64,000 nucleotides of DNA, taken from positions 2,578,797-2,642,796 of the forward strand of contig OZ251529.1 in NCBI GenBank assembly GCA_965243125.1, written 5' to 3'. The translations under genes were made by a program, and so were the position numbers. Of this stretch, positions 14,104-58,321 are shown in pieces. Source of the stretch: Dehalococcoidia bacterium. Its GTDB lineage: Bacteria > Chloroflexota > Dehalococcoidia > Bin125. The notes beneath the pieces are model-generated. The model was not told the origin of the DNA. It searched no databases and saw only the letters and a program-made list of their open reading frames with translations. Numbering within the stretch: position 1 is the stretch's first letter; each line of letters starts with the position of its first letter.

Positions 14104-14139
14104 CCGCCCTTGCCGCTGAAAGAGCGTAGGCTCACAACC

Positions 14140-27171: not shown

Positions 27172-27246
27172 TGGTACCCCCGGTAGGATTCGAACCTACG
27201 CTCCCGGCTCCGGAGGCCGGTGCTCTATCCCCTGAGCTACGGGGGC
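27172..27246 (-). tRNA. tRNA-Arg (anticodon CCG), CCA encoded
   Basis: Reverse strand reads GCCCCCGTAGCTCAGGGGATAGAGCACCGGCCTCCGGAGCCGGGAGCGTAGGTTCGAATCCTACCGGGGGTACCA. It folds by hand into a cloverleaf: 7-bp acceptor, D arm GCTC/GAGC, anticodon stem CCGGC/GCCGG with loop CTCCGGA, T arm GTAGG/CCTAC with loop TTCGAAT. Confidence 0.93.
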
Positions 27247-31926: not shown

Positions 31927-32182
31927 GGGAAATCGCCCCCCTATGCAGGGGGGGGCGCCGCGCCGCGCCGCGGGGGGTCGGTGCGGAGTCTGCGCTGTGC
32001 TCGGGGCGCCGGACCGACCCCCCAGTCCGCTGGAAGCGGACAGCCCCCCTGCACAGGGGGGCGATTCCGGCCTCTCCCCCCATCCTGGGGGGAGATTGAG
32101 AGGGGGGCTCCGTCCGCGCACGCAGAACCCCCCCGTAGCCCCCCCACGATGGGGGGCGATTCGGAAGGAGCGATTCCGCAGC
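31927..32182. repeat. Mosaic GC-rich hairpin repeat (family 2), near full-length composite copy
   Basis: All modules are present in one copy, between convergent genes: gaaatcgcccccctatgcagggggg / gcgccgcg..cggggggtcgg / gtgctcggggcgccggaccgaccccccagtccgc..gcggacagcccccctgcacaggggggcgattcc / cctctccccccatcctggggggagattgagagggggg / cccccgtagcccccccacgatgggggg. Confidence 0.9.
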
Positions 32183-32199: not shown

Positions 32200-33390
32200 C
32201 TAGAGGGCGTCGTAGAGCAGGTCGATCAATCGTCTCACGTGGCGGTGCTGCCAGCCGGCGCGGCCGCGATTCATGACGTAGCCGAAGCCGAGGGCGGCCT
32301 TGCGATCGGCGAAGCCGAGCGAGCCGCCGCCGCCGAAATGGCCGAAGGTTTCGGGGTTGGGGCCGAGCGGACGCTCACGCATCGCCAGCTGGAAGCCGCT
32401 GCCGAAGCGGGTCGCGCGGCCCAGCACGCGATCGAGGCCGTAGACCTGCTCGGCCGAGGCGGCGGCGATGGTGGGCGGCGCGAGGAGCTGCGCTCCTCCG
32501 GCGGCGGTGGTGGGCGGCGCGCCGTCGGTCGCCAGCGCGCCGTAGAGGCGGGCGAGGGCGCGGGCGTTGCCGTGGCCGTTGGTGGAGGGGAACTCGGCGG
32601 CGCGGTACTCGCGGCTGTTCTGGCTGCCGGGGCCCCGCTCGATCATCGGCGGGTTGCGGTTGGCGAGCAGTTGCAGCGGGTTGGGCGGCGAGCGCACGAG
32701 GTCGGGCGGCTGCTGCATCGGCAGCATGTCGGCGGTGCGGGCGTCGTCGGCCGCCTTCGTGCCGAAGTGGAAGTCGATGCCCAGCGGCTCGCCGATTTCC
32801 TGCCGGAGGAACGCGCCGATCCGCGTTCCGGTTGCGCGGCGGATCAGTTCGCCGATCAGGAAGCCCTGGGTGTTGGAGTGATAGCCATGCGCGGTACCCG
32901 GCGGCCACCAGGGTTCCTGCGCGGCGAGCGCGCCGCACATGATGTCCCAGCGCAGTTGCGAACCGCGCGGCAGCGGGCGTCGGATCGCCGGCAGCCCGGC
33001 CTGGTGGGTGAGCAGCCAGCGGATGCGCACATCCTCTTTGCCCGCTTGCGCAAACTCGGGCCACCATTCGGCGACGCGCCCGTCGATATCGAGTGCGCCG
33101 CGCTCGACGAGCCGCCAGACAAGGATCGCGGCGACGGCTTTGCCGACGGAGTAGCAGCAAACGAGCGTGTTTTGCGCCCACGGCGTGCTGTGCGCGGCGT
33201 CGGTCCAGCCGCCCCAGAGGTCGAGCACGGGCTCGCCGCGCAGCGTGACCGCGAGCGCTGCGCCGGTCTCGCTGCCGGCGGCGAAGTTCTCCCGGAAGGC
33301 GTCGCGGACGGCGGCGAAGCGGGGGTCGCACTCGCCCTGCACGGGGGCGTCGGCGGGCGAGGGGAGCTCCCGGCGCTGCGGCAAGGTCAC
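32200..33390 (-). CDS. Serine hydrolase, beta-lactamase (class C/esterase) family
   Basis: It has the SxxK motif YSVGKAV. GTGA overlap with the prmC stop. Confidence 0.82.
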   Translation of the reverse strand: MTLPQRRELPSPADAPVQGECDPRFAAVRDAFRENFAAGSETGAALAVTLRGEPVLDLWGGWTDAAHSTPWAQNTLVCCYSVGKAVAAILVWRLVERGALDIDGRVAEWWPEFAQAGKEDVRIRWLLTHQAGLPAIRRPLPRGSQLRWDIMCGALAAQEPWWPPGTAHGYHSNTQGFLIGELIRRATGTRIGAFLRQEIGEPLGIDFHFGTKAADDARTADMLPMQQPPDLVRSPPNPLQLLANRNPPMIERGPGSQNSREYRAAEFPSTNGHGNARALARLYGALATDGAPPTTAAGGAQLLAPPTIAAASAEQVYGLDRVLGRATRFGSGFQLAMRERPLGPNPETFGHFGGGGSLGFADRKAALGFGYVMNRGRAGWQHRHVRRLIDLLYDAL

Positions 33391-34259
33391 GCGACGATGC
33401 TCAGGGCGCGGGGGCGCTCGGAGAAGTCGTTGAGCACGCGCACGGTCGCGTCGGGCAGCAGTTGGGCGGCGCTGGAGGCGAGTACGTCCTCCTGGCCCGG
33501 GTCGAGCTCGAGCACCGCGATGCCGTTGGGCGCGAGGCGCGGGCGCAACTGGGTGAGTAGCCGCAGCTGCAGCGCGGCGCCGTTGCGCCCCGGCGTGAGC
33601 GCCTGACGCGGCTCGTGCTGCGCGACCTCCGGCTCGAGTTGTGGCAGCCGCTCCTCCGGGATGTAAGGGAGGTTGGCGACGATGCAGTGAAACGGCCCCT
33701 GCAGCGGGGTGAGCAGGTCGCCCTGCACGAAGTCGGCGCTGGCGCGGCGCAGCAGCCGCGCGGCGTTTTCGCGCGCGACGCTCAGCGCGGCGGCGGAGAT
33801 ATCGGTGGCGACCAGCCGCGCGCCGCGGCGGTGGTGGGCGATCGCGATCCCCACCGCGCCCGAGCCCGCGCCGACATCGGCGATCCGCGCGCCGCGCACC
33901 CGCGCCTTGCGCAGGTGATCGAGCGCGGTGTCGACCAACAGCTCCGATTCAGGCCGCGGGATCAGCACATCGGGCGTGACGCGGAATTCGAGCCGATAGA
34001 ACTCGCGCGAGCCGGTGATGTAGGCCAGCGGGCGGCGCTCGATCCGCTCTTCAAGCAGCTCGAAGAAGCGGTCGAAATCCCGCTTCGTCATCGGGTCGGT
34101 CAGCGTCGCGTAAAACTGCGCGCGGTTGCGGCTGGTGGCGTGGCGCAGCAATACCTCGGCCTCGAAGCGGGCGTCGCCGATGCCGGCCTTCTCGAGCAGC
34201 TGGGTAGCCGACATCCAGACATCGCGCAGGTTGACGATCTCGTCGCCGCCGCCGCTCAC
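33387..34259 (-). CDS. prmC: Release factor glutamine N5-methyltransferase PrmC/HemK
   Basis: It has ADVGAGSGAVGIA (SAM motif) and the NPPY-type motif ANLPYIP. I start it at the in-frame GTG 34259, which overlaps the prfA stop (GTGA). ATG 34214 is the alternative. Track codons upstream of 34259 are shadow. Confidence 0.85.
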   Translation of the reverse strand: MSGGGDEIVNLRDVWMSATQLLEKAGIGDARFEAEVLLRHATSRNRAQFYATLTDPMTKRDFDRFFELLEERIERRPLAYITGSREFYRLEFRVTPDVLIPRPESELLVDTALDHLRKARVRGARIADVGAGSGAVGIAIAHHRRGARLVATDISAAALSVARENAARLLRRASADFVQGDLLTPLQGPFHCIVANLPYIPEERLPQLEPEVAQHEPRQALTPGRNGAALQLRLLTQLRPRLAPNGIAVLELDPGQEDVLASSAAQLLPDATVRVLNDFSERPRALSIVA

Positions 34260-35326
34260 GCGCCGGCCTCCGCCAGCAGCCGCGCCTCTTCCGCCACCGC
34301 CGCCGCGTCGATCATCGGGTCGAGGTTGCCGTCGAGCAGGCCGCCGAGGTCGTGGCGGGTCAGCCCGATGCGGTGGTCGGTGACGCGGTTTTCGGGGAAG
34401 TTGTAGGTGCGGATTTTCTCGGCGCGCTCGCCGCTGCCGACCTGCGCGCGGCGAGCGTCGGCGCGTTCGGCCTGTCGCGCTTGTTCCTGCATCTCGTAGA
34501 GCCGCGCGCGCAGCACCGAACGCGCCTTGATTTTGTTCTTCAGCTGCGAGCGTTCGTCGGTGCAGGTCACCACGATGCCGCTCGGCTCGTGCGTCAGCCG
34601 CACGCCGGTCTGCACCTTGTTCACGTTCTGCCCGCCCGCGCCGCCGGAGTGAAAGAGATCGAGGCGGATATCGGCCTCGTCCAGTTCCACATCGAACTCC
34701 TCGGCCTGGGGCAGCACGGCGACGGAGGCGGTGGAAGTGTGGATACGCCCCTGCGCCTCGGTTTCGGGCACGCGCTGCACGCGGTGGACGCCGCGCTCGT
34801 ACTTGAGCCGCGAGAACGCGCCGTCGCCGTCGATCTCGCAGATCACCTCCTTGACTCCGCCGGCCGCGTTCTCGCTGAGGCTGAGCACATCGGTCTTCCA
34901 TTTCTGGGTTTCGGCGTAGCGGACGTAGGCGCGCAGCAGGTCGCCGGCCCAGAGCCCGGCTTCGTCGCCGCCGACGCCGGCGCGGATTTCGACGATCACG
35001 CTGCGCTCGTCGTTGGGGTCGCGCGGCAGCAGCGCGCGGCGCGCCTCCTGCTCAAGCTGCTCGATTCGCTCGGTCAGCTCGTCGAGCTCCGCCTGCGCCA
35101 GCTCGCGCAGCTCGGCATCGTCGGTATCGTTCAGCACTTCGCGGGCCTGCGCAAGGCCGCCGCTGGCCTGCTCCCAGTCGTCGAGCAGCTGCACGACGGG
35201 CTGGAGCGAGGCGTGCTCCCGCGCCAGCGTCTGGAGCCGCGCCGGATCGGTGCTCACGGCGGGGTCGGCCAGCTCGCGCTCGATCGCGTCGCGCCGTTCG
35301 CGCACGGCCTGGAGTTTCTCCCACAT
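34256..35326 (-). CDS. prfA: Peptide chain release factor 1
   Basis: It has the GGQ motif SGGAGGQNVNKV and the RF1-type P-x-T motif in RVQRVPETEAQGRIHTS. Confidence 0.95.
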   Translation of the reverse strand: MWEKLQAVRERRDAIERELADPAVSTDPARLQTLAREHASLQPVVQLLDDWEQASGGLAQAREVLNDTDDAELRELAQAELDELTERIEQLEQEARRALLPRDPNDERSVIVEIRAGVGGDEAGLWAGDLLRAYVRYAETQKWKTDVLSLSENAAGGVKEVICEIDGDGAFSRLKYERGVHRVQRVPETEAQGRIHTSTASVAVLPQAEEFDVELDEADIRLDLFHSGGAGGQNVNKVQTGVRLTHEPSGIVVTCTDERSQLKNKIKARSVLRARLYEMQEQARQAERADARRAQVGSGERAEKIRTYNFPENRVTDHRIGLTRHDLGGLLDGNLDPMIDAAAVAEEARLLAEAGA

Positions 35327-35365
35327 GATGCGCGGCTCCGCGATCGTTCGGTCTCTTCGGGCGGC

Positions 35366-36673
35366 TCAGTCGCGCTCAGTATATGGAGCGCCGCCGCCGG
35401 CCTCTGTGATTTCGGCTACGACGGCGTCGAGCGACAGATCGCGCTGCTCGCCGCTGCTCATCTCGCGCAGGGTGACGGCGCCCGCGGCGAGGTCGCGCTC
35501 GCCGACGATGATCGCCCAGCGGCAGCCCGACCGCCCGGCGTGCCGCAGTTGCGCCTTGAGCGAGCGCCCGCCGAAGGCCAGCGTCGCCGACACGCCCGCC
35601 CGCCGCAACCGCCCCGCCAGCCCGCCGGCCGCGGATGCCACGCCCGCGCCGAGCGTCGCGATCACCACTTCCGGCTGCTCCTCGTCGTCCTCGGCCAGGC
35701 CCTGTTCGCGCAGCTGGAGGGCGAAGCGATCGATGCCCATCCCGAAGCCGATGCCCGGCGTCGGCGGCCCGCCGATCTGCTCGATCAGCCCGTCGTAGCG
35801 CCCGCCGGCCAGCAGCGTGGTCTGCGATCCCTCGGCCGAGCCCGGCACGAGCTCGAAGACGGTGTGCGTGTAGTAATCCAGGCCGCGCACCAGGCTGGGG
35901 CGCTCCTCGTAGCGGATGCCGAGCGCGTCCAGCTGCGCCTTGACCGCCGCGTAGTAAGCGGCGGACTCGTCGCTGAGGTGATCCGTGATCAGCGGCGTGC
36001 CCTGCTGATACGGGCGCGTCCGCTCGTCCTTGCTGTCGAGCAGCCGCATCGGCGCGCGCTGGAAGCGAGCGCGGTCGTCGGGCGCAATGCGGTCCAGATG
36101 CGGCTCGAAGTGCGCCTTCAGCTTGGGCACGTAGGCGCGGCGATCCTCGAGATCGCCGATGCTGTTGATCAGCAGCGTTAGATCGCCCAGCCCGAGTCGC
36201 TCCGCGATCCGCCAGCCGAGATCGATCACCTCCGCGTCGAGCGCCGCGTCGCGCACGCCCAGCGCCTCCACGCCGAACTGCGTGTGCTGGCGGAAGCGGC
36301 CCGCCTGCGGGCGCTCGTAGCGGAACATCGGCGCGACGTAGGCCAGTTTGACCGGCTGCGGCAGATTGGCCATCCCGTGCTGGAGATAGGCGCGGCAGAC
36401 CGAGGCCGTGCCCTCCGGGCGCAGCGCCAGACGATCGCCGCCGCGATCCTCGAAGACGTACATCTCTTTCTCGACGATGTCCGTCGCCTCGCCCACGCCG
36501 CGCGAGTAGAGCTCGGCGCTCTCAAACGTGGGCGGCTCGATGAAGCCGTAGCCGCAGAGCCGCGCCTGCTCGCGCGCCGCGGCGACGATTCGGTCGCGCA
36601 CGCGATGCTCGGCGGGCAGCAGGTCGCGCGTGCCGCGCGGCGCCTGGAACGCCTGGAACATCGATCGGTCCAA
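35366..36673 (-). CDS. hisS: Histidine--tRNA ligase
   Basis: It has APRGTRDLLP, class II motifs (MFRYERPQAGRFRQHTQ, GGGRYDGL-like LAGGRYDGLI) and an anticodon-binding C-terminus. The start could also be ATG 36661. Confidence 0.93.
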   Translation of the reverse strand: MDRSMFQAFQAPRGTRDLLPAEHRVRDRIVAAAREQARLCGYGFIEPPTFESAELYSRGVGEATDIVEKEMYVFEDRGGDRLALRPEGTASVCRAYLQHGMANLPQPVKLAYVAPMFRYERPQAGRFRQHTQFGVEALGVRDAALDAEVIDLGWRIAERLGLGDLTLLINSIGDLEDRRAYVPKLKAHFEPHLDRIAPDDRARFQRAPMRLLDSKDERTRPYQQGTPLITDHLSDESAAYYAAVKAQLDALGIRYEERPSLVRGLDYYTHTVFELVPGSAEGSQTTLLAGGRYDGLIEQIGGPPTPGIGFGMGIDRFALQLREQGLAEDDEEQPEVVIATLGAGVASAAGGLAGRLRRAGVSATLAFGGRSLKAQLRHAGRSGCRWAIIVGERDLAAGAVTLREMSSGEQRDLSLDAVVAEITEAGGGAPYTERD

Positions 36674-36755
36674 TCACTTCCGTCGTGGGCGAACTCAGCG
36701 TACAGCGGCCGCCCCAAATGCTGATCAATCGCGCCGATGCGCGTACATTGTGGCT

Positions 36756-39011
36756 ATGACCACCGCCGGCCCGACCACCGCCCCTGCCGCCTCGGCCGCC
36801 TCGGCCGCCTCGGCCGCCAAGCCCGATACCGCGGACCGCTCGCTGCACCCGGCCTTCGACGACCTGACGGGCGTGCTCGAGGGCTACCTCGCGCCCGAGG
36901 AGCTCGCGCAGGTCGAGCGCGCCTACGAGTTCGCCCGCAGCGCCCACAGCGGACACCTGCGGCGCTCCGGGCACCCTTACATCTCACACCCGCTGGCGGC
37001 CGCGATCGTCTGCGCCGAGCTGCAGCTCGACGTGCCCGCCGTGCAGGCCGCGCTGCTGCACGACGTGATGGAGGACTGCGGCATCACCCGCGCCGAACTG
37101 GTCGACGCCTTCGGCGTCGATGTGGCCAAGCTGGTCGACGGCGCGACCAAGCTCAGCGCGCTGCACCTGCCCGATGTCGAACACCCCGCCGTCGATGAGG
37201 ACGCGCAGGCCGAAAACCTGCGCAAGATGTTCATCGCCATGGCCGACGATGTGCGGGTCGTGATCGTCAAACTCGCCGACCGCCTGCACAACATGCGCAC
37301 GCTGGGCGCGATGCCGCCCGAGAAGCAGCGCCGCATCTCGCGCGAAACGATGGAAATCTACGCCCCGCTCGCCGCCCGGCTCGGCATCTGGCAGATCCGC
37401 GCGCAACTCGAAGACCTGTCCTTCAAATACCTCGAACCGGCCGCCTACGAGCGCGCCTCGCGGCTCGTCGCCGCGCGCCGCGAAACCCGCGAGCGCTACC
37501 TGCGCCAGCTGCGCCGCCAGCTCGAAAACGCGCTCGACGCCGCCGGGCTGCGCGCCGAGGTCAAGGGCCGCGTCAAACACCTCTACTCGATCCACCAGAA
37601 AATGCGCAAATACGCCGCGCAGGGCAAATCCTTCAGCGACATCTACGACCTGCTCGCGGTGCGCGTGCTGACCGAGTCGACCGCCGACTGCTACGCCGCG
37701 CTGGGCGTCGTCCACGGGATGTGGCGGCCGATCGCCGGCGAGTTCGACGACTACATCGCCAGCCCGCGGCCCAGCGGCTATCAGTCGCTGCACACCACCG
37801 CCTACTGGTCCTCCTCGCACCCCGTCGAGGTGCAGATCCGCACGCATCAGATGGACTACGACGCGGAGTACGGCGTCGCCGTCCACTGGCTCTACAAGGA
37901 GGGCCGCAACACCGACCCGGACGACCGCGAGCGGCTCTCCTGGCTGCGCCAGCTGGTCGACTGGCAGGGCGAGCTGCCGGGCAGCGGCGATTTCCTCGAA
38001 ACGCTGCGCAGCGACATCTTCCAGGATCAGGTCTTCGTCCACACCCCGGCCGGCGAGATCATCGCCCTGCGGCGCGGCGCGACGCCGCTCGACTTCGCCT
38101 TCCGCATCCACAGCGACGTCGGGACCTCCTGCGTCGGCGCGAAGGTCAATGGGCGGCTCGTCCAGCTCTCAACCCCGCTCGACAACGGCGATCTGGTCGA
38201 GATCGTGACCAGCCGCAACTCGCGCGGACCCAGCCGCGACTGGCTCAATCCCGCGCTCGGTTACGTCACCACCCAGACCGCGCGCACCAAAATCCGCCAG
38301 TGGTTCCGACGCCAACAGCGCGGCGAAAACATCGCCCGCGGGCGCGAAGAACTCGAGCGCGAACTGCGCCGCCTCGGCCTGCGGCTCTCCAATGTCGAGG
38401 ACGAAGTCGTCGCCGTCGCCGGCGGCAAAACGCTCGACGACGCACTGGCCTTAATCGGCGCCGGCGATCCGACGGCGCACCAGGTCGCGCTGCGCGTCGC
38501 CACGCCCGAAGAGGCCGCACCCGCCCCGCCGCCCGCGCGCCTGCCCGACGCCGCGCCGCCCGACGAGGACCTGGCCGGCTCCGTGCGCGTGCTCGGCGCG
38601 CCCAATGTGCTGACCCGTATCGCCGCCTGCTGCCAGCCGCGCCGCGGCGACCCGATCCGCGGCTACGTCACCCAGGGCCGCGGCGTCAGCGTTCACCGCA
38701 CCGATTGCCACAACGTCGTCCATACCGCCGAGCGCCACCGTCTGCTCGATCTGCAATGGACGCGCGGCGGCGGCAACTATGTCGCCCGCCTGCGCGTCGA
38801 CGGCTGGGACCGTGTCGGCTTCGCCCGCGACGTCGCCACCATCTGCGCCGACGAGGACGTGAACATGGTCTCGCTGACCACCAGCGAGCCGAACGGCGGC
38901 CAGGTCAGCATCAGCTTCAGCGTCGAAGCCGCCAACCTCGCCCAACTCCAGCGCCTAATTCACAAGCTCGACGACATCCGCGGCGTCCTGGCCGTAGAAC
39001 GCGAAACCTGA
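36756..39011 (+). CDS. relA: Bifunctional (p)ppGpp synthetase/hydrolase, RelA/SpoT (Rel) family
   Basis: Start set at ATG 36756. It has the HD domain HRRSGHPYISHPLAAA, the synthetase region RVKHLYSIHQKM and YQSLHTT, and TGS and C-terminal ACT-like regions. Confidence 0.93.
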   Translation: MTTAGPTTAPAASAASAASAAKPDTADRSLHPAFDDLTGVLEGYLAPEELAQVERAYEFARSAHSGHLRRSGHPYISHPLAAAIVCAELQLDVPAVQAALLHDVMEDCGITRAELVDAFGVDVAKLVDGATKLSALHLPDVEHPAVDEDAQAENLRKMFIAMADDVRVVIVKLADRLHNMRTLGAMPPEKQRRISRETMEIYAPLAARLGIWQIRAQLEDLSFKYLEPAAYERASRLVAARRETRERYLRQLRRQLENALDAAGLRAEVKGRVKHLYSIHQKMRKYAAQGKSFSDIYDLLAVRVLTESTADCYAALGVVHGMWRPIAGEFDDYIASPRPSGYQSLHTTAYWSSSHPVEVQIRTHQMDYDAEYGVAVHWLYKEGRNTDPDDRERLSWLRQLVDWQGELPGSGDFLETLRSDIFQDQVFVHTPAGEIIALRRGATPLDFAFRIHSDVGTSCVGAKVNGRLVQLSTPLDNGDLVEIVTSRNSRGPSRDWLNPALGYVTTQTARTKIRQWFRRQQRGENIARGREELERELRRLGLRLSNVEDEVVAVAGGKTLDDALALIGAGDPTAHQVALRVATPEEAAPAPPPARLPDAAPPDEDLAGSVRVLGAPNVLTRIAACCQPRRGDPIRGYVTQGRGVSVHRTDCHNVVHTAERHRLLDLQWTRGGGNYVARLRVDGWDRVGFARDVATICADEDVNMVSLTTSEPNGGQVSISFSVEAANLAQLQRLIHKLDDIRGVLAVERET

Positions 39012-39120: not shown

Positions 39121-39230
39121 TCGTCATTCCTGCCCCCTTGTCCGCCATCTCTGCGCCCTCCATCCGTCATTCCTGCCGCCCCCTTCCGCCATCCCTGCGC
39201 CCTCCTTCCGTCATTCCTGCCGCCCCCTTC
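39121..39230. repeat. Degenerate tandem array of family P half-sites (cgtcattcctgcc...)
   Basis: cgtcattcctgcc occurs at 39123, 39176 and 39210, with degenerate ccatc(c/t)ctgcgccctcc units between. It lies directly upstream of MITE copy A. Confidence 0.8.
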
Positions 39231-39394
39231 CGTCATTCCTGCGTAGGCAGGAATCCACGCGGGCCTCGTGATTGTGAATGCACTTCGGCGTTTCGACGGG
39301 CCGCCAGAAGCGGCCTTCGAGGGCCGTTGGGACCTCTGAAGCGCGAACGAGGGCGGTGGATCGCCTGGATTCCTGCCTACGCAGGAATGACGGA
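39231..39394 (+). mobile_element. MITE-like element, copy A (~164 bp), with hairpin-forming 27-bp terminal inverted repeats
   Basis: The left end is CCGTCATTCCTGCGTAGGCAGGAATCC and the right end is GGATTCCTGCCTACGCAGGAATGACGG. Each end contains the palindrome ATTCCTGC-GTAG-GCAGGAAT. The ~110-bp core is homologous, in inverted orientation, to copies B, C and D. Confidence 0.85.
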
Positions 39395-39483
39395 AGGGGG
39401 GCGTAGGGGTTGTTGGAGGGGGCGCAGGGGTGTTGGATGGGGGGTGGCAGGACTGATACGGGGGGCGCTAGACTTGCGGTGCG

Positions 39484-39774
39484 ATGCCCAAAGAACCGTG
39501 CGTCTACATTCTTGCCAGCAAGCGCAACGGGACGACCTACATCGGCGTTACGTCCGATTTGCCGCGCCGCGTCTGGATGCACAAAGAGGATCTGGTGGAG
39601 GGCTTCACGAAGCACTACGGGGTACACACGCTCGTCTGGTATGAACTGCACGAGACGATGATCGAGGCGATCACCCGCGAGAAGCAGCTCAAGCGCTGGA
39701 AGCGCGATTGGAAGATTCGTCTGATCAACGAGTCCAACCCGCAGTGGCGAGACCTGTACAACGAACTCGCCTAA
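39484..39774 (+). CDS. GIY-YIG nuclease family protein (small URI-domain, UPF0213/YhbQ-like)
   Basis: 96 aa. It has VYILASKRNGTTYIGVTSDL (GIY...YIG), R..H, and E..AI..EKQLKRW. It is visibly AT-richer than its flanks. Confidence 0.9.
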   Translation: MPKEPCVYILASKRNGTTYIGVTSDLPRRVWMHKEDLVEGFTKHYGVHTLVWYELHETMIEAITREKQLKRWKRDWKIRLINESNPQWRDLYNELA

Positions 39775-39839
39775 CCTTCGGCGCTCTCCCGCCCGCCAGT
39801 CCTACACCCCCGCCCGCCATCCCTCCGTCTCTCTTCCAT

Positions 39840-39989
39840 CACCCCTGCGCCCCCTGTCCCTCATCCCTGCGCCTCCTCCTCCGTCATCCCTGCGCCTCCT
39901 CCTCCGTCATCCCTGCGCCTCCTCCCCCGTCATCCCTGCGCCTCCTCCATCACCCCTGCGCCCTCCTCCGTCATTCCTGCCACCCCCCC
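39840..39989. repeat. Degenerate tandem array of family P half-sites (ccgtcatccctgcgcctcct x ~5)
   Basis: Units of cctcctccgtcatccctgcg repeat at a ~29-bp period from about 39860 to 39990, leading into MITE copy B. Confidence 0.8.
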
Positions 39990-40152
39990 CCGTCATTCCT
40001 GCGTAGGCAGGAATCCAGGCGACCCGCCGCCCTGGTTCGCGCCCCAGAGGTCCAACGGCGCTCGAACGCTGCTGCGGGAGGCCCGTCGAAACCCCGAAGC
40101 GCATCCACAACCGCGAGACCCGCGTGGATTCCTGCCTACGCAGGAATGACGG
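39990..40152 (-). mobile_element. MITE-like element, copy B (inverted relative to copy A)
   Basis: It has the same TIRs. The core ccaggcgacccgccgccctggttcgcgcc...gcgcatccacaaccgcgagacccgcgtgg is the reverse complement of the copy A core with scattered substitutions. Confidence 0.85.
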
Positions 40153-40177
40153 AAGAGGGGCGCAGGAATGGCAGAGG

Positions 40178-40325
40178 GGCAGGAATCCAGGCGATCCGCC
40201 GCCCTGGTTCGCGCCCCGGAGGTCCAACGGCCCTCCAACGCTGCTGCGGGAGGCCCCGTCGAAACCCCGAAGCGCATTCACAACCGCGAGACCCGCGTGG
40301 ATTCCTGCCTACGCAGGAATGACGG
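40178..40325 (-). mobile_element. MITE-like element, copy C (left TIR truncated)
   Basis: It starts with ggcaggaatcc only (half TIR). The core is near-identical to copy B and the right TIR is intact. An extra half-site follows at about 40335-40347. Confidence 0.8.
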
Positions 40326-40472
40326 AAGAGGGGCGCAGGAATGACGGAGGGGGGCAGGGACGGTGCCAGGGGCGCAGCCGGCGGGCGAGGGGCGGCGGCC
40401 CCGCTTTGGCGGGGCCGCCTTTGGTCGCCTCTTTGGTCGCCTCTTTGGCCGCTCTGGCCTAGCCGCTCTGGC

Positions 40473-43400
40473 CTAGCCGCCCAGCCAGAGGACCACGCCC
40501 GGGTCTACGTGGAAGTCCATCGAGCCGGGCACGACCTGGCCCTCGGAGACCGCGTAGCGCAGCCACTTGCCGTTCTGCCAGAGCAGAATCGCCGTGATCT
40601 GCTCATTGTCGATGTCGCCCAGAATGTCCGAGGCGTAGACCATCGCGTCGCCGATCCAGGTCGTGAAATCGTTCGGACGCGGGTTGGTCAGACCCTCCGC
40701 CGGGCGCTCCTCGCGCTCCATGTGGCCCACGCTGAGCAGCTTCACGTCGGTCGCCGGCGTCGCCGTCGCGCGCACCCAGGCGTTGCCCTGCCCGACCACC
40801 AGATAGCTGGCCGAAGCCTTGCCGTCGGTCGTCGCGTTGACCGTGCTCAGCTGCACCACAATCGCAGTGCGGCTGGTCGAGCCGTCCGCCCAGCGGACCG
40901 GCGTGCCGTCGGGCACCGGCGTGCCGTCGGCGTCGAGCACCGTGGCGATCACCGAGAACGTGCCGCCCCGCGCGGTCGAGCCTTCCACCTTGTCGAAGGC
41001 CAGCGTCGCCGCGCCGCCCGTGACCGTGAAGTTGCGCGTGAACGTCTTGCTCGCGGCGCTCAGCGTCAGCGCGTACTGCCCGGTCGCCAGCGGCGAGCTC
41101 GGGTCCGCGTTGACGTTGACCTCGAGCAGCAGTCTGCCCTCGCCGTCGCGCGCGAAGCCGTCCGCCGGGGCCGCGGCCGCCGAGCCGCTGTAGGGCTTCG
41201 GCCAGGCCACGCTGAAGTTCGAACTCGAGCGCGTCGCCTCGCTGTAGACCACCCGCCCTTCGGCGTTGCGGATCACCACCCGCCCGTTCGCCGCGTTCGG
41301 CACCTCCACCTTGTTGCCGCCCGCGTCGGCCGCCGTGACCGACAGCGTCATCAGGTCGCGGTTGTCCACATCCTCGTCGGCCACGTTCTCGTCGCCCGCG
41401 TCCGGCGTGTCCACGTTGAGCACGCTGGTGCGCGGCGCGCCCACCTCAATCGTCTCGGCCGGCCCGGCGAAGACCACGGTGACCGCCTCGGGTTCGACGA
41501 TCTCGCCGATCCGCGGCTGCACGCTGGCCCGCACTTCCGCCGTGCCCGGCGTGCCCGGATGCTCGATCGCGATCCGAATGTTGCCCGAGTTCGCCGCGGT
41601 CAGCGCCGAGACCGGCACCTGGCAGCTCAGCCCGCCGTCGCCCCCGCTGCAACCGCCGCCGATCGTGGTCGACAGCCGCCCGCGGTTGGCCGTGATCAGC
41701 ACCGAGGCGATGCTGTTCGCGCTCGCGCCGCCGCCGCCCGAGTTGGTCACCGACAGCTGCAGCGTCGTCCGGTCGCCGCGCTTCGCCAGCACCGAGGGGA
41801 ACGTCCGGTCGTCGTCCGAATTCGTCGGGTCGCCCGGATCCTCGGCCAGCCCGAACTCCACGTTGGCCACCTCCGTGACCGTGCCGATCGTCACCTCCAG
41901 CTCGTCGGTCAGCACCCGGCTGGGCGTGTCCGCGTCGTCGTCGCCGTCGTCCACCCGGAACGTGCCCGAGATGGTGAACTTGCCGTCGGGCGTGCCCTCG
42001 GGAATCACGATCTCCGTGTCGGGCAGCGCGATCACGCAGGTCCAGGTGGTCGCGTCGTCCAGCGTGCGGGCCGCGCAGCCCTGCGCGGACGACAGCTCCG
42101 CGGCGCTGTCCCGCACCGCCGTGCGTTCGGTGGGACCAGCGCCGTCGTTCAAGTCCACGCCATCCAGATCGAAGGACCAGGCGCGGCCCGTGCCGACGCC
42201 CTGGTAGAGCAGGATGTTTGCCGGCGCCGCGCCGCCCGGGAGGTAGGAGGAGTGCGGCGCTTCGGACTGGCCCACGATCAGCGTGTCGTCGTCGAGCGCG
42301 ATGCCGGCGCGCGCGCCGAACAGCGCGTTGGGCGTGTTGCGCGGCGCGTTGATCACCATCGTGGATGTGCTGGCGTCCGCCCAGCTGCTGCTGTTGTAGA
42401 GGTGCGCCGTGCCCGACTCGAACACGCTGTTCGCCCCGTCGCTGGTCCGCAGCTTGAAGACGCCGCCGGTCACCGCGATCGTGTTGCCGTCGTCGTTGAT
42501 CGCCACGCTGTTGCCGAAGCGGTCGTTGGCGTGCGAGGTCGCGCTGTTGGTCAGCACCGCGGTCGCGTGGTGATCGAGCAATTCCTGTCCAGCGGCCCAA
42601 GGGGTGCCGGGCTCCACCCAGACGACGGCGGCGCCGGCCCAAGGGTTGATCCGGTTATGCCGTGCGGCCTCAACGCACTGGCCCCGCACGAGGCGCGGGT
42701 AACCGCCGGCGCCCGCGACGACCGTGCTGCCGTCGTGGTCCAGCGCGACGCTCTGGCCCAGGTAGAGGCACTCGGCGCTGCCGATCGCGTGCGTCTCCAG
42801 GCCCACGGTCAGGCGCGACGCCCGCAGGATTCGCTGCGGCACGAGCGTGCTCGTGACTTTGGTCCAGCCGCCCGTCGGCTGCACGAACACGGAGACGGCG
42901 CCCAGGTTGCGCTTCGTCGGGTTGTTGAAGGGGAAATCGGCGAGCGGGTGGCCGATCGCGATCGTCGTTTCGTCGCCGGAGATCGCGATCCCGGTGCCTT
43001 CCCAATGCTGGTCGCCGGCGTACATGCCCGGGTTGAGCGGGCTGACATGCATCAGGTCCGCGATCGTCATGTCGATCCAGGTGTGCTTGTTGTTGGTCCC
43101 CCCCTGCGGGCGCCGGAAGACCCAGCCGGCCACGGTGTCCCAGCGGTCGGCGTAGGCGGTGCCGTCCTGGGGTTCGAGCAGGGCGGGCGCGCCGGAGATC
43201 GCGATGTATTGGCCGGAGTCGCTGATCGCGACGCCCGCGCCGAACTTGAGGATGCTGTGCAGCTGGCGGGCGTTGGCGTCGGCGGGGTTTGGGGGGCTGG
43301 GCTGGGGCACGAAGGCGGTCGGCGCGAGCCGCGCCGCCCGCTCCACGAGGTCTTCGGCGTCGGTCAGCTTGAACAGGTAGACGGCGCCCTGGCCGGGGTG

Positions 43401-44135: not shown

Positions 44136-44627
44136 AGTGGTGAGGCTCCTGACACACGGGCTCGTTTCACGTCCTCATGGTAGTGCCCCCTACCCTACAG
44201 AAAACACCCCCTACGATTCTGTCCCCCCCCCCCCCCAGTTTCACAAAGGTTTTACGGGCCGCGCGATCCGCCCTCTCCCCCCATCCTGGGGGGAGACTGA
44301 GAGGGGGGTTCGCCGACGTCGCACGCAGAACCCCCCCGTAGCCCCCCCACAATGGGGGGGCGGTCAGAAATCCCCCCACGCAGGGGGGGCTGTCTGTCCG
44401 GAATCGCCCCCCTACGCAGGGGGGCTGTCTGCGTAAGCAGACTGGGGGGTCGGTCCGGCGCACCGAGCACAGCACCGCCGCCCCGACCCCCCCGCCGCGC
44501 AGCGCGGCGGCCCCCCTGCATAGGGGGGCGATTCGGAGGGGACGATTCCCGAGAGCCCCTATCTGGTCGGAGGTGGTAGGAAATGTTCCAATATGTCAAG
44601 GTTTGTCCAAAACAGTCAGGGTCGGCG

Positions 44628-44722
44628 GGACCCTCCGGCCTCTCCCCCCATCGTGGCGGATCCCCTCCGGCCTCTCCCCCCGTCGCGGGGGATCCCCTCC
44701 GGCCTCTCCCCCCGTCGCGGGG
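44628..44722. repeat. 32-bp tandem repeat array, 3 units (ggatcccctccggcctctcccccc[ag]tcgcgg[cg])
   Basis: Read directly. There are no spacers between units. Confidence 0.9.
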
Positions 44723-45049
44723 GGAGATTGAGAGGGGGGCTCCGGCCGCCGCGCACGCCCCGAACCCCCCCGTAGCCCCCCCACAATGGGGGGGCGGTCA
44801 GAAATCCCCCCACGCAGGGGGGCTGTCTGTCCGGAATCGCCCCCCATCGCAGGGGGGCTGTCTGCGCAAGCAGACTGGGGGGTCGGTCCGGCGCACCGAG
44901 CACAGCACGACCGCCGCGCCGACCCCCCCGCCGCGCGGCGCGGCGGCCCCCCTGCATAGGGGGGCGATTCCCGAGAGCTCCTATCTGGTCGGATGTGGTA
45001 GGAAATGCTCCAATATGTCAAGGTTTGTCCAAAACAGTCAGGGTCGGCA

Positions 45050-45271
45050 GGACCCTCCGGCCTCTCCCCCCATCGCGGCGGATCCCCTCCGGCCTCTCCC
45101 CCCGTCGCGGCGGATCCCCTCCGGCCTCTCCCCCCATCGCGGCGGATCCCCTCCGGCCTCTCCCCCCATCGCGGCGGATCCCCTCCGGCCTCTCCCCCCG
45201 TCGCGGGGGATCCCCTCCGGCCTCTCCCCCCGTCGCGGGGGATCCCCTCCGGCCTCTCCCCCCGTCGCGGG
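45050..45271. repeat. 32-bp tandem repeat array, 7 units (same unit as 44628-44722)
   Basis: Unit starts are at 45050, 45080, 45112, 45144, 45176, 45208 and 45240. The period is exactly 32 bp after the first unit. Confidence 0.92.
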
Positions 45272-45480
45272 GGGAGATTGAGAGGGGGGCTCCGGCCGCC
45301 GCACACGCCCCGAACCCCCCCGTAGCCCCCCCACGATGGGGGGCAGTCAGAAATCACCCCCCACGCAGGGGGCTCCGCTCCGAAATCGCCCCCCATCGCA
45401 GAGGGGCTGTCTGCGCAAGCAGACTGGGGGGTCGGTCCGGCGCACCGAGCACAGCACGACCGCCGCCCCGACCCCCCGCC

Positions 45481-45677: not shown

Positions 45678-47102
45678 TCAACTCCTTTGGCGGCGCGCCG
45701 GCATTGCGGCGCGGCCGATGCCGACTCGCGGCGGCGCAACAGATGCGCGCCGGCGCTCGTCGGCTGCTTCGTGCATGTAGCGATCCGCGTCGAGCAGATC
45801 GTCGTCCTCCTTGACCGGCTTGGCCGCGCCGCCCGCGCTCGGGTCGGGCGGCTCCCAGCGGTAGGCCGACATCCGCTCGGGGAAGATCGTCAGCTCGGGC
45901 AGGTAGTAGGAGCGGGGCGCGCCGCCCTCGCCGGCGGCGAGCCGGCGCTGTACCAGGTCGATCCCGGCCTGCACGCTGTGCGGACCGCCGACGGAGGGCG
46001 TGATCGAGAGCCCCTGGCGGGCGAGCCGGTTGATCCAGGCGCTCTGGCTGCGGTCGGCGCGCCAGTGAATGCGCCGCCCCCCAATACCGCCGGAACCGCC
46101 GGAACCGCCGGCGAAGCGCGCGGCGCAGCCCTGCATCCACGCCTCCAGCCGCGCGATCACGTCGTGCCCGCCGCTCTCGAACTCCGCCAGCCGAATCAGG
46201 ACATCCGCGCCGCAGGCCGCGCGGGCGTCGGTCAGCCCCGCCACGATCCCGGCCGTCTTGTGGTGATGCTCGGCCGGCCCGCCGAAATCGAGTCCGCCGA
46301 CGTAGCGCGCGAAAGGCGGCAGCGGCTCGTCCCAGCGGTGCCGCAGCCGGTCGAAGCGGGGGTAGACCAGCCCGAGAAAGGCGTCGAAGCGCCCCTCGAC
46401 GAAGCGCGTCACCCAGTCGTCGGAGAGCATCGCGCGCTGGAGCGCCTCGTAGTTGGCCGGCAGCCAGGGGTTGTCGCGCATCCGCGCGGCGACGAACTCC
46501 AGCCGCAGGCCGGCCTGCTCGAAGCGATCCAGCGGCAGCTCCCGGCGCACAAACCAGCGCTCGAACCAGCCCGGCCAGGGGTTGCTGGCGGCCGCGAACA
46601 GGCGCAGCGGCTGCGCGCGGTGGCGCAGCCGCGTGATCAGCATCCGCGCCGCATCCTCCGACACCTCGCCCGCCTCATCGATGAACACCGCGCCGTACTC
46701 CTGCGAGCCCAACCCGGTCCAATCGGTCAGATGCCGAAACTGGATGACCGAGCAGGGGCTGGATCCGGCGGCGCGGATCGCCAGCTGCTCGGGGCCGGAG
46801 CGGCGCCGCTCGGCGATCAGGTGGTCGGGGCAGCGGTCGAAAAATTCGCTCATCGTGGTGCTGCGCAGATCGGTGTAGCGGAGTCGGGCGATCAGGATGC
46901 GCGTCCCTGGGAAGGTCTGCGCCGTATCGAGCGCCAGCTCGACCAGCGCGCGCGTCTTGCCGCCGCCCATCGCCCCGCCGTAGCCCGCCAGCACGATCCC
47001 CTCCGGCAGCGGCGCGCGCGTCGTCTGCCAGAGCTCCCGCTGGCGCGCGGTCGGAACAAAGCCGAAAGCATCGCCCCCCAGGTCAAGCGTCGGTGCAGCC
47101 AT
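45678..47102 (-). CDS. Phage terminase large subunit (TerL, Terminase_6-like), isolated
   Basis: Start set at ATG 47102 (MAAPTLDLGGDAFGF). It has Walker A GYGGAMGGGKT, Walker B VFIDEAGE, and nuclease-domain Asp contexts VGGLDFGG and DDLLDADRYM. Confidence 0.85.
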   Translation of the reverse strand: MAAPTLDLGGDAFGFVPTARQRELWQTTRAPLPEGIVLAGYGGAMGGGKTRALVELALDTAQTFPGTRILIARLRYTDLRSTTMSEFFDRCPDHLIAERRRSGPEQLAIRAAGSSPCSVIQFRHLTDWTGLGSQEYGAVFIDEAGEVSEDAARMLITRLRHRAQPLRLFAAASNPWPGWFERWFVRRELPLDRFEQAGLRLEFVAARMRDNPWLPANYEALQRAMLSDDWVTRFVEGRFDAFLGLVYPRFDRLRHRWDEPLPPFARYVGGLDFGGPAEHHHKTAGIVAGLTDARAACGADVLIRLAEFESGGHDVIARLEAWMQGCAARFAGGSGGSGGIGGRRIHWRADRSQSAWINRLARQGLSITPSVGGPHSVQAGIDLVQRRLAAGEGGAPRSYYLPELTIFPERMSAYRWEPPDPSAGGAAKPVKEDDDLLDADRYMHEAADERRRASVAPPRVGIGRAAMPARRQRS

Positions 47103-47123
47103 ACGGAAGAATACAGAACGTAA

Positions 47124-47147
47124 GTTCGATTTGCAAGCAAATCGAAC
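47124..47147. promoter_or_regulatory. Perfect 11-2-11 palindrome GTTCGATTTGC-AA-GCAAATCGAAC, 22 nt upstream of the terminase start
   Basis: Read directly. It is the only AT-rich perfect palindrome in this region. It is a candidate operator or 5'-UTR hairpin. Confidence 0.35.
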
Positions 47148-47148
47148 G

Positions 47149-47252
47149 GGGCGCTCCGGAATCGCCCCCCTATGCAGGGGGGCTGTCTGCGTAAGCAGAC
47201 TGGGGGGTCGGTCCGGCGCACCGAGCACAAGACAGACTCCGCGCCGACCCCC
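47149..47252. repeat. Family 2 mosaic repeat
   Basis: Reads ctccggaatcgcccccctatgcaggggggctgtctgcgtaagcagactggggggtcggtccggcgcaccgagcac. Confidence 0.85.
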
Positions 47253-47273
47253 TCCGTCATTCCTGCGCCCCCT

Positions 47274-47435
47274 CCGTCATTCCTGCGTAGGCAGGAACCC
47301 AGGCGAACCGCCCGCGTTCGTTCGCGACTCGGACTCTCAACGGCCCTCCAACGCTGCTTTGGGAGGCCGTCAGAACACGGAGGCTCGATCACAACCACGA
47401 GGTCGCCTGGATTCCTGCCTACGCAGGAATGACGG
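47274..47435 (-). mobile_element. MITE-like element, copy D
   Basis: It has both TIRs (ccgtcattcctgcgtaggcaggaa(c)cc ... ggattcctgcctacgcaggaatgacgg). The core is related to B and C but more diverged. One extra half-site precedes it at 47255. Confidence 0.82.
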
Positions 47436-47500
47436 AAGGAGAGCGCCGAGGCTTTTGACGAATTGCGCAAAGGATCATCGTGCAGGAGAGGTTTCTCAAT

Positions 47501-47655
47501 GCCCCCCCATCGTGGAAGCGCCCATCTCAATACCCCCCCATCCTGGGGGGGCTACGGGGGGGTCTGCGGGCAGCCGGCGGAGCCCCCCTCTCAATCTCCC
47601 CCCGCGACGGGGGGAGAGGCCGGAGTGGAATCCCCCGCGACGGGGGGAGAATTCG
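47501..47655. repeat. Family 2 mosaic repeat overlapping the 3' end of the beta-helix protein gene
   Basis: Reads ccccccatcgtgg, cccccccatcctgggggggctacgggggg, cccctctcaatctccccccgcgacggggggagaggccgg. Confidence 0.85.
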
Positions 47656-51822: not shown

Positions 51823-51942
51823 GACGGCCGACCCCCCAGTCCGCTGACGCGGACAGCCCCCCTGCGTAGGGGGGCGATTCCGGATCTGAATCCTCCCCCT
51901 ATGCAGGGGGAGGCGCCGCGTAGCGGCGGAGGGGGTCGGCCT
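51823..51942. repeat. Family 2 mosaic repeat (partial)
   Basis: Reads ggccgaccccccagtccgctgacgcggacagcccccctgcgtaggggggcgattccgg...ccccctatgcaggggg. Confidence 0.85.
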
Positions 51943-54880: not shown

Positions 54881-55262
54881 CTCCGAAATCGCCCCCTACG
54901 CAGAGGACCTCGCTCCGGAAATCGCCCCCCTACGCAGAGGACCCCGCTCCGGGAATCGCCCCCCTACGCAGAGGACCCCGCTCCGGGAATCGCCGCCCCC
55001 CTATGCAGGGGACCTCGCTCCGGGAATCGCCCCCCTATGCAGGGGCCTCGCTCCGGAAATCGCCCCCTATGCAGGGGGGCTGTCCGCGCAGCGGACTGGG
55101 GGGTCGGTCCGGCGCACCGAGCACAGCACACCGCCCCCCATCCTGGGGAAGAAAAGTGCCCCCCCATCCTGGGGGGGCTACGGGGGGGTGCCTGCGAGCG
55201 CGCGCCTCACCCCCCTCTCAATCTCCCCCCGCGACGGGGGGAGAGGTCGGAAAGGGACTCCG
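54881..55262. repeat. Family 2 repeat block, including about 6 tandem ~37-bp units of the 'aatcgcccccctacgcagagg' module
   Basis: ctccgg(a/g)aatcgcccccctacgcagaggacc(c/t)cg is repeated from 54881 to about 55080. The gaccgacccccc and cccctctcaatctcccccc modules follow. Confidence 0.88.
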
Positions 55263-55272
55263 CACTCCCCTC

Positions 55273-55302
55273 CCGTCATTCCTGCCTGCGCAGGAATGAC
55301 GG
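55273..55302. repeat. Solo family P palindrome: CCGTCATTCCTGC-CTGC-GCAGGAATGACGG
   Basis: Perfect 13-bp arms. It equals the outer halves of the two MITE TIRs joined with no core. Two extra aatgacgg half-sites follow. Confidence 0.85.
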
Positions 55303-57502: not shown

Positions 57503-58173
57503 CAGTCATCCTCTCCAATCAGCGCCCAGACCTCCTCGAAATCGATCGTGAAGCCCGGCAACTCCGGTTCCGCCGACAGCTCCGACGGACGCTCCAGCCG
57601 CACGACCTCGCGCCCCGGCCGGTAGACGAACACCAGCCGATCATCGGGGTCGACCAGCACGCCCAACCGCACGCCGAAGCCGATCCACTCCGCCATCTTG
57701 TCCTGCTGCGCTTTGAGCTGGTCGCTCGGCGAGCGCACCTCCACAACGAAGTCGGGGATCGCCGCGACGATGCGGCGACGCTTCGCGCGGCTCATGTCGC
57801 CCAGCCGCTCATCGCTGATCCAGCATGCGTCGGGCTGGCGCACGCTGCCGTCGGAGCGCTGGATGCCGGTGCTCGCGCCGTAGACCTGGCCAGTGTGATG
57901 GCCCACCCACCAATTCCCCAGCAGTCGGCTGAATTCACTTTCGAGCGCGCCGCTCTCTCCACCTACAGGCCAGTTCATCACCAACGCCCCTTCCGCGTCG
58001 CGCTCGAAGCGCAGACCGTCGTTCAACGACGAAATGCGCAGCAGCAGATCGTCCGTCAGCGGGCACTCCGCCGGAAAGCGCAGCGTCGGCAACGCCGGCA
58101 GCTCCGGCGCCCCCGCCGACGCGACCGCCACCCCGCCCAATTCCGCCTCCCGCGTCGCCGTCGCAGTCGCCAT
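57502..58173 (-). CDS. Uma2 (DUF820) family PD-(D/E)xK endonuclease
   Basis: Start set at ATG 58173 (MATATATREAELG). It has RFERDAEGALVMN, PDACWISDERL and PDFVVEVRSPSD (the D...E-V-R/K core), typical of Uma2. Confidence 0.8.
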   Translation of the reverse strand: MATATATREAELGGVAVASAGAPELPALPTLRFPAECPLTDDLLLRISSLNDGLRFERDAEGALVMNWPVGGESGALESEFSRLLGNWWVGHHTGQVYGASTGIQRSDGSVRQPDACWISDERLGDMSRAKRRRIVAAIPDFVVEVRSPSDQLKAQQDKMAEWIGFGVRLGVLVDPDDRLVFVYRPGREVVRLERPSELSAEPELPGFTIDFEEVWALIGEDD

Positions 58174-58204
58174 CGCGCCCCCTCCACCGCGATAGTAGCC
58201 CCTC

Positions 58205-58300
58205 CGCTCCCGCCCAGGGGCGCCCGCCCCGTCATTCCCGCCCCCCTCCCCGTCATTCCCGCCGCCCTCCCCGTCATTCCCGCCCCCGAGCGGGAATCTC
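58205..58300. repeat. Family P variant: 3 tandem half-sites (ccccgtcattcccgcc) ending in the palindrome ATTCCCGC-CCCCGA-GCGGGAAT
   Basis: Read directly. It lies between the Type ISP gene stop and the Uma2 start. Confidence 0.85.
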
Positions 58301-58321
58301 CCCGCACGCCCCAATCCCCGC

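Follow-up and report, generated by a model that had tools for sequence, protein, structure and literature searches.

An Ssn-family GIY-YIG gene among CGTC-tagged hairpin repeats in a Dehalococcoidia bacterium

A 64,000-nucleotide stretch of contig OZ251529.1 (GCA_965243125.1) from a Dehalococcoidia bacterium of the phylum Chloroflexota, referred to here as the window, contains a small gene for a GIY-YIG nuclease, designated ssn, that lies among copies of a hairpin-ended repeat. As judged from sequence, it is highly probable that this gene encodes an Ssn-family nuclease and that the hairpins are its cognate targets. The pair is of a kind that has already been published, the Ssn/NTS-SRM system (Chenal et al., Nat Commun 2025; PMC11893778). 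A first-pass annotation of this DNA had regarded the pairing of a GIY-YIG enzyme with such a repeat as undescribed, and the 2025 publication removes that claim.

The Ssn family (CDD cd10448) was described together with recognition hairpins called NTS or SRM. The assayed enzyme, the 94-aa GIY-YIG protein SsnA of Neisseria meningitidis (NMV_0044/NMB0047), binds the NTS CGTCATTCCCGCGMAVGCGGGAATCYRG only as single-stranded DNA (ssDNA), and one strand only. It cuts a few nucleotides upstream of the hairpin, is inactive on double-stranded DNA (dsDNA) and RNA, and leaves RNA unbound. The substitutions Y6A, Y17A, and E64A each abolish cutting. In the hairpin, the unpaired tag and tail residues are required for ssDNA binding and cutting, and extensions of the loop leave cleavage intact. 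An NTS-like motif (SRM) was found near 71% of the homologs and on both sides of 42%, and a homolog is encoded in 81% of the genomes that have more than 200 SRMs. Deletion of ssnA led to about 5-fold more transformation by NTS-bearing DNA, and the effect was lost if the NTSs were mutated (PMC11893778).

The product of the window gene resembles this enzyme along nearly its whole length. The first-pass annotation had called a 96-aa GIY-YIG gene, and the open reading frame (ORF) and a Pfam match (PF01541, E 2.6e-16, residues 5-78) agree with that call. No second domain was found above threshold in Pfam, NCBIfam, or PADLOC, where the protein had no match at all, and none for DNA binding is present. 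The protein shares 63% identity over 92 gap-free residues (E 9e-44; tblastn E 4e-32) with the 94-aa SsnA ortholog of N. gonorrhoeae, which was used in place of the assayed N. meningitidis enzyme. These values lie below the limit by which Chenal et al. define homology (E < 1e-10 to Neisseria SsnA), here applied to the gonococcal ortholog. The direct comparison was possible because two 2.17-Mb N. gonorrhoeae chromosomes, NZ_CP119140.1 (L084; homolog loci carry the prefix L) and NZ_CP119142.1, are filed as plasmids in PLSDB. The gonococcal ORF has tyrosines at positions 6 and 17 and NTS hairpins on its flanks. Y8, Y19, and E66 of the window protein are the aligned counterparts of Y6, Y17, and E64 in SsnA. 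Across 28 homologs, Y8, Y19, G21, R29, H33, E66, and N85 are invariant. The window protein is thus a member of the Ssn family. The gene is also AT-richer than its surroundings, as had been remarked, with a GC fraction of ~0.60 against 0.65-0.75 in the flanks.

Other likenesses of the protein are faint. A profile search of PDB sequences gave one meaningful match, 1ZG2 (UPF0213, BH0048; E 1.2e-4). The UPF0213/YhbQ proteins are likewise small stand-alone GIY-YIG proteins, and the relationship is distant. We know of no hairpin association for the UPF0213/YhbQ group. WD40 repeat proteins topped the same search and were rejected as repeat or composition artefacts made up of many 4-7-bit stretches.

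Each end of the repeat is a 28-nt unit, CGTC-ATTCCTGC-GTAG-GCAGGAAT-CCA(G/C), with an unpaired tag, an 8-bp stem, a loop, and an unpaired tail. The 20-mer ATTCCTGCGTAGGCAGGAAT, with up to 3 mismatches, gave 16 strand-matches at 8 sites in the window and 0 in 100 shuffles. The tag plus left arm, CGTCATTCCTGC, with up to 1 mismatch, gave 21 matches against 0.54 expected. Folded as ssDNA, the end hairpin reaches -9.2 kcal/mol (z -4.2) and the whole 175-nt element of copy A -69.4 kcal/mol (z -10). The hairpin that had been noticed at each element end is therefore well founded. The ~164-bp elements are head-to-head (HH) dimers with tags outward, inverted ends of 28-32 nt, and a spacer of ~106-114 nt (Table 1). 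The interior of copy A is 84-85% identical to copies B and C as the reverse complement and 64-65% in the same orientation, which confirms that B and C lie opposite to A. B and C are 95% alike, and D is 74-78% like them. The further copies and derivatives that had been listed proved to be a full dimer (D), a solo palindrome that folds at -17.9 kcal/mol (z -8), and two arrays with variant stems. A further palindrome, near-perfect and tagged at both ends, CCGTCAGAACCGCC-TAGC-GGCGGAAATGACAAGG, is present at 9930-9960, 35 bp past the variant array at 9783-9896.

Table 1. Positions in the window of ssn, the tagged hairpin repeats, the half-site arrays, and a second hairpin family.
Feature	Position	Strand	Description
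Variant hairpin	9783-9896	+	Stem ATACCCGC / ATACCCGCG, 5-nt loop; three half-sites with 24-bp period precede
C-run/G-run hairpins	14073-14935, 16548-16564, 31936-32156, 44277-45343, 47165-47614, 51857-51874, 55159-55241		
Half-site array	39122-39230	+	~22-bp period, CGTCATTCCTGC and degenerate forms; beyond left end of A
Copy A	39231-39394		Left hairpin 39231-39258 (+), right hairpin 39365-39392 (-), 106-nt spacer
Degenerate half-site array	39393-39460	-	Beyond right end of A; ends 24 bp before ssn start codon
ssn	39484-39774	+	ATG-to-TAA ORF, 96 aa; predicted single-domain GIY-YIG nuclease, Ssn family (cd10448-like)
Half-site array	39794-39990	+	~9 units of 20-23 bp; lies between ssn stop codon and B
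Copy B	39990-40152		Left hairpin 39991-40018 (+), right hairpin 40124-40151 (-); its spacer runs opposite to that of A
Reverse half-sites	40152-40372	-	For example 40335-40346; beyond right ends of B and C; overlaps C
Copy C	40178-40325		Left hairpin lacks its tag and left arm; right hairpin 40297-40324 (-)
Copy D	47274-47435		Left hairpin 47275-47302 (+), right hairpin 47407-47434 (-); half-site 47255-47266 beside it
Solo perfect palindrome	55274-55301		CGTCATTCCTGC-CTGC-GCAGGAATGACG; tag on both sides
Variant hairpin	58229-58296	+	Stem ATTCCCGC, 6-nt loop; two half-sites precede

The ssn gene sits between dimers whose tags face it. The nearest oriented hairpins are the right one of copy A (-) and the left one of copy B (+), together with half-site arrays. 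The first-pass annotation had not mentioned these arrays. Outside the tags of most hairpins there are tandem arrays, with a period of ~21-24 bp, of degenerate half-sites that consist of the tag and left arm. The units resemble the hairpin most when they are nearest to it, and the likeness fades with distance. Further arrays were found in the window at 58229-58271 and 9783-9861, in L083 at 10360-10548, and in L086, L034, L033, and L080. In all, 7 of 81 sources have arrays of at least 2 units. The arrays stand on the side outside the tag, which is where Ssn reportedly cuts. No description of half-site arrays was found in Chenal et al. (2025; PMC11893778) or in Di Nocera et al. (2013; PMC3733652). 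In addition, positions 40419-40475, between the repeat cluster and the end of a gene for a 1220-aa FG-GAP protein, contain two short exact tandem duplications (12 bp x2 and 14 bp x2).

The link between gene and hairpin was explored in other genomes. Thousands of homologs of the window protein exist. The best 120 have 68-100% identity and come from Burkholderiales, Deltaproteobacteria, Anaerolineales, Dehalococcoidia, Desulfobacterales, and others, many of them on short contigs. One genome per species was scanned, with at least 591 confirmed relatives, and the gene-hairpin statistics were drawn from 80 homolog loci, which span many phyla and include up to 10 kb of flanking sequence. At these loci, GTCATTCC occurs 65 times within 0-200 bp upstream of the ATG, and GGAATGAC occurs 60 times within 0-200 bp past the stop, over a background of ~0-2 per 100-bp bin. 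This accumulation at the gene ends bears out the earlier suggestion that the gene and the repeats form one system. The published SRM motif lies within 300 bp of the gene in 71 of the 80 loci and on both sides in 45, with ~0.7 occurrences per simulated 64-kb window. Repeat association extends to other members of this GIY-YIG family.

The usual form at these loci is cGTCATTCCsGC-GNAN-GCsGGAAT-CCAG, ~13-17 nt, the gene from ATG to stop, ~6-12 nt, and CTGG-ATTCCsGC-NTNC-GCsGGAAT-GACg. The median distance from hairpin to gene is 16.5 nt on the ATG side and 12 nt on the stop side. Among loci the stems change on both arms (ATTCC/GGAAT, ACCCC/GGGGT, ATACC/GGTAT, GTCCC/GGGAC) and the tag and tail stay constant. 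The strict tags-out layout, with the gene inside a hairpin pair, was found in 27 of the 80 loci. The layout with tags facing the gene was found in the window, in the gonococcal locus, and in 5 of the 80. The closest homologs, at 79-95% identity (L081, L082, L083, L086, and L087), have the CCTGC stem, and a homolog at 78% identity has CCGGC. At least 120 metagenome contigs contain the window-type hairpin, and only 5 of them also carry ssn, 11-52 bp from a hairpin. This dispersal is a pattern of many repeats and few genes. The gene and the hairpin are a general, conserved pair. In L003, L013, L024, and L034, the loop of the upstream hairpin carries an insert of 20-35 nt that forms a second hairpin, which agrees with the published tolerance of Ssn cleavage for loop extensions.

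The likeness to the Neisseria system extends from the protein to the DNA around it. Both have a single-domain GIY-YIG protein of 94-96 aa with catalytic Tyr, Tyr, and Glu. Both have oriented hairpins with a CGTC tag, an 8-bp stem, a GNAN loop, and a CCA tail that are clustered at the gene and also dispersed, and the layout with tags facing the gene is Neisseria's as well. The NTS-like architecture is complete in the window, including the C directly after the palindrome. There are also differences. The CCTGC/GCAGG stem of the window differs from the published NTS by one compensated pair, C:G to T:A, and the GTAG loop falls outside the NTS loop consensus GMAV. The host belongs to Chloroflexota, a phylum unnamed in the main text of Chenal et al.; within the analysis itself, one named RelA relative at 63% identity and the Chloroflexota and Dehalococcoidia names among the ssn loci make this phylum probable. 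In addition, 22-bp half-site arrays and complete dimers border the window gene, in place of single hairpins directly beside it. The window pair is a member of the Ssn family with a shifted, compensated stem.

Four points weigh against assigning these hairpins to the window protein as its targets. The published SRM motif, HGTCWYN(0-2)YYVSBRHN(0-5)WNVSBRGN(0-2)RNCYNB, has 0 matches in the 64-kb window because the stem has a T where the motif demands V (non-T). Cognate recognition of the CCTGC variant is therefore put forward as a prediction. The functions proposed for the protein and for the CCTGC hairpin would follow from homology, and that homology was measured to the N. gonorrhoeae ortholog, not to the assayed N. 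meningitidis protein. Lastly, ssn lies outside a hairpin pair in the window, unlike at most loci.

If the window protein behaves like the Ssn enzymes that have been characterised from Neisseria and Wolbachia, it would act on DNA that is exposed as single strands during replication, repair, or recombination, or as incoming DNA. The strand CGTC-ATTCCTGC-GNAG-GCAGGAAT-CCA would fold into an 8-bp hairpin. Ssn would bind this hairpin sequence-specifically in one orientation only and would hydrolyse that strand, a few nucleotides to the 5' side of the tag. Neither dsDNA nor RNA would serve as a substrate, and the dimers and solo hairpins would be the genomic target sites of the enzyme. The predicted ssDNA substrate of the window Ssn is CGTCATTCCTGCGTAGGCAGGAATCCAG. 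Both the ssDNA nuclease activity and the cut position are expected from homology.

The window repeats also match a superfamily that was described earlier. Di Nocera et al. (BMC Genomics 2013; PMC3733652) defined CGTC-tagged repetitive extragenic palindromes (REPs), which include dRS3/NIME of Neisseria and RPE-4/RPE-6 of Rickettsia. They have an unpaired 5' CGTC, an 8-9-bp stem starting A-T then T-A, a 4-5-nt loop, and an unpaired CCA tail. They occur mostly as HH dimers, with tags outside and a conserved spacer of 20-100 bp, and they "apparently lack a dedicated transposase" (PMC3733652). The window repeats resemble the CGTC-1 type in the CGTC tag, the 8-bp stem starting A-T, the 4-nt loop, the CCA tail, and the prevalence of HH dimers. 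Copies A, B, and D are HH dimers in the sense of that definition, with spacers that are 74-95% alike. Several stem variants within one genome are a further shared trait. The window spacer of 106-114 nt is slightly over the usual range. Chloroflexi are not listed among the CGTC hosts, and the enzyme and the half-site arrays are unreported in the 2013 paper. The terms 'Di Nocera', 'CGTC-tagged', and 'REPIN' are absent from the main text and reference list of PMC11893778. It seems that the identity of SRM/NTS with CGTC-REPs, and with it the question of the missing transposase, is not stated in the main text of Chenal et al.

The comparison with REPs and REP-associated tyrosine transposases (RAYTs) that had been made for this DNA is apt, and the same comparison is made in PMC11893778. 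In both systems, one or a few nuclease genes lie between inverted, tagged ssDNA hairpins, many copies are dispersed and are mostly inverted dimers, and a hairpin with an unpaired tag is recognised on one strand. The ~164-bp HH dimers are the analogue of REP doublets forming hairpins (REPINs) and of bacterial interspersed mosaic elements (BIMEs). The enzymes differ: a RAYT is a Y1 HUH tyrosine transposase with a covalent intermediate, and Ssn is a hydrolytic GIY-YIG nuclease. The REP tag is GTAG, against CGTC in the window. That the nuclease mobilises the repeats is hypothetical, and characterised orthologs only cut ssDNA.

A similar distinction is needed for the term miniature inverted-repeat transposable element (MITE), which had been applied to the repeat. 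The inverted ends are present, as the term implies. The strict sense does not hold, since copies A, B, and D have no apparent target-site duplication. The sequences beside them are inverted half-sites, as in CCCCCTTC, then CGTC...GACG, then GAAGGGGG, with no direct repeats. Hairpin-ssn-hairpin cassettes with like ends are common (the 27 strict loci), and a transposase activity of Ssn would be hypothetical. None of 37 predicted window proteins matched a transposase domain, including Y1, in Pfam at E <= 1e-6, and the earlier statement that no transposase lies in the window stands. Insertion into one palindromic target was also considered and rejected, as the two hairpins, left and right, are inverted copies over their full length, loops included.

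Mobility is a tentative possibility as a function of Ssn beyond cutting. In this REPtron-like reading, Ssn would excise and reinsert, or copy, the dimers and the hairpin-ssn-hairpin cassette, and would fill the place of the transposase that CGTC-REPs apparently lack. Such an added function is compatible with the proposed nuclease activity and is not exclusive of ssDNA restriction. The hypothesis was also raised by Chenal et al., who likened NTS-ssnA-NTS to an insertion sequence, compared it with IS200/IS605, RAYTs, REPs, and BIMEs, and left the role of Ssn in other bacteria for future work (PMC11893778). A transposase for the CGTC-REPs was not found by Di Nocera et al. (PMC3733652). The tags-out layout of hairpin, gene, and hairpin is like that of an insertion sequence. 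Identity of 62-73% across Chloroflexota, Pseudomonadota, Planctomycetota, Rhodothermales, and Acidobacteriota, with many homologs on short, broken contigs, suggests horizontal spread and multiple copies. Three ssn-like copies lie within 20 kb in L035 and two in L080. In L085, a truncated and decayed ssn remnant (2752-2950) follows a tagged hairpin upstream of an intact hairpin-ssn-hairpin cassette. Thirty-nine Ssn homologs (L090-L128; 47-63% identity) are found on predicted viral contigs in IMG/VR, and 20 of these are directly flanked by SRMs.

Comparison of close relatives points in the same direction. In L081 and L082 the gene is 95% identical and the relA-ssn synteny is shared, and the spacer of the upstream dimer is oriented opposite to that of copy A. 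The dimer at L081 9711-9869 and L082 1914-2072 is 83% identical to window positions 39231-39392 as the reverse complement and 61% in the same orientation. Its likeness to window copies B and C (85-87%) exceeds that to A. This difference suggests either an inversion or the substitution of a different copy. L081 and L082 also differ from the window in their number of half-site units. In L083, which is 82% identical, the upstream dimer is absent and the downstream order of array, dimer, and array is kept. The earlier description of the gene as bracketed by inverted copies therefore holds in the window and fails as a conserved feature. Beside relA, both ssn and these hairpins are missing from relatives whose RelA is 88% or 80% identical.

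Several observations run against mobility. GIY-YIG enzymes hydrolyse DNA. To our knowledge, strand transfer, ligation, or a covalent intermediate has been found for no member of the GIY-YIG superfamily. The hydrolytic chemistry of the fold thus speaks against mobility by Ssn alone, as do the missing target-site duplications at A, B, and D. SsnA has been demonstrated for cleavage alone (PMC11893778). The position of the gene is conserved in Neptuniibacter (L025, L027, and L063) and in Thiobacillus (L003, L010, and L014), as vertical inheritance predicts. No clean empty site was recovered among the relatives that lack ssn beside relA, which also carry an inversion of the adjoining gene block and a different intergenic repeat family. 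The bla-prmC-prfA-hisS-relA block (~32200-39011) is inverted in the window relative to L088 and L089, whose RelA is 80-88% identical. The relA-side breakpoint of the block is the site of the ssn/hairpin cluster, and the other breakpoint (31936-32156) carries hairpins of the C-run/G-run family listed in Table 1.

A wider form of this proposal holds that Ssn is the propagating enzyme of the whole CGTC-REP superfamily and that the system is active at present in this lineage of Chloroflexota. Three further points go with it. The upstream dimer, flipped or replaced from one near-identical strain to another, would record such activity. The half-site arrays would be footprints of repeated Ssn nicking, with slipped or template-switched repair afterwards. 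A co-evolved shift in specificity would be reflected in the stem change from C:G to T:A. Taken jointly, these claims are doubtful.

Control of ssDNA by restriction or of recombination is also unlikely as the explanation of the window pair. Here Ssn would cut hairpin-bearing single strands, shorten the homology, and lower integration near repeat-flanked genes. The genetics of ssnA in N. meningitidis (PMC11893778) favour this role, and the window shares the gonococcal layout in which tags face the gene. However, the host, an uncultured bacterium, is not known to be naturally competent, and the window itself carries nothing that bears on transformation.

It is quite improbable that the hairpins act chiefly as RNA, as terminators, mRNA stabilisers, or translational control elements of ssn, with a secondary link to the nuclease. 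The common layout, with a hairpin 13-17 nt before the ATG and another straight after the stop, could suit such a role, and many REPs have been argued to be transcribed (PMC3733652). However, SsnA does not bind RNA (PMC11893778). The unpaired tag and tail are conserved in one orientation, which fits the residues needed for ssDNA binding and cutting. At Rfam gathering thresholds there was no match at the repeats, and the only match in the window was a tRNA at 27175-27246. The hairpins also have no trailing T-runs.

A free-standing GIY-YIG homing endonuclease that cuts dsDNA empty sites and is copied in by repair is most improbable: weak, sub-threshold likeness of the protein to TIGR01453 (18.2 bits, cut-off 56) and PHROG 314/5123 (E 0.002-0.007) and the resemblance of the solo palindrome to two joined outer half-sites are outweighed by the single 96-aa domain, which does not have the second, DNA-binding domain of such enzymes, and by the uncut dsDNA of characterised Ssn members (PMC11893778).

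With the pair read as an Ssn nuclease and its hairpins, what is new here is modest: the host lineage, the compensated T:A stem, the 22-bp half-site arrays outside the tags, and the upstream repeat that is inverted in a sister strain. The published SRM motif misses whole lineages with compensated stem changes, and the number of Ssn homologs that were counted as having no repeats is therefore probably too high. The Ssn hairpins are here tied explicitly to the CGTC-REP superfamily, whose missing enzyme was an open problem in 2013. The CCTGC stem and GTAG loop may offer a natural specificity variant of enzyme and hairpin for the proposed uses of Ssn as an ssDNA tool. If it is true that the arrays and the dimer turnover are products of Ssn, this would be the first evidence of the way in which the repeats multiply.

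Other features of the window were also observed. A second and more abundant hairpin family is present, made up of C6-7, a 4-7-nt loop, and G6-7, with 32 matches against 0.09 expected. Its highest density is in the intergenic region at 44.1-45.7 kb. After some copies comes CTAC, the complement of GTAG, and these copies may be GTAG-tagged REPs. In L088 and L081, tandem arrays related to this family fill the intergenic regions adjacent to relA. A 516-aa ORF (45681-47228, - strand) with a weak match to the large subunit of phage terminase (Terminase_3, E 2e-7) adjoins copy D, and no other phage genes were noticed near it. At 57505-63160 (-), a putative Type ISP restriction-modification enzyme of 1612 aa is encoded beside a Uma2-family putative endonuclease. 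The half-site array and variant hairpin at 58229-58296 lie within the predicted N-terminal extension of the Uma2 ORF, and this extension is probably non-coding because the Pfam match begins at residue 108.

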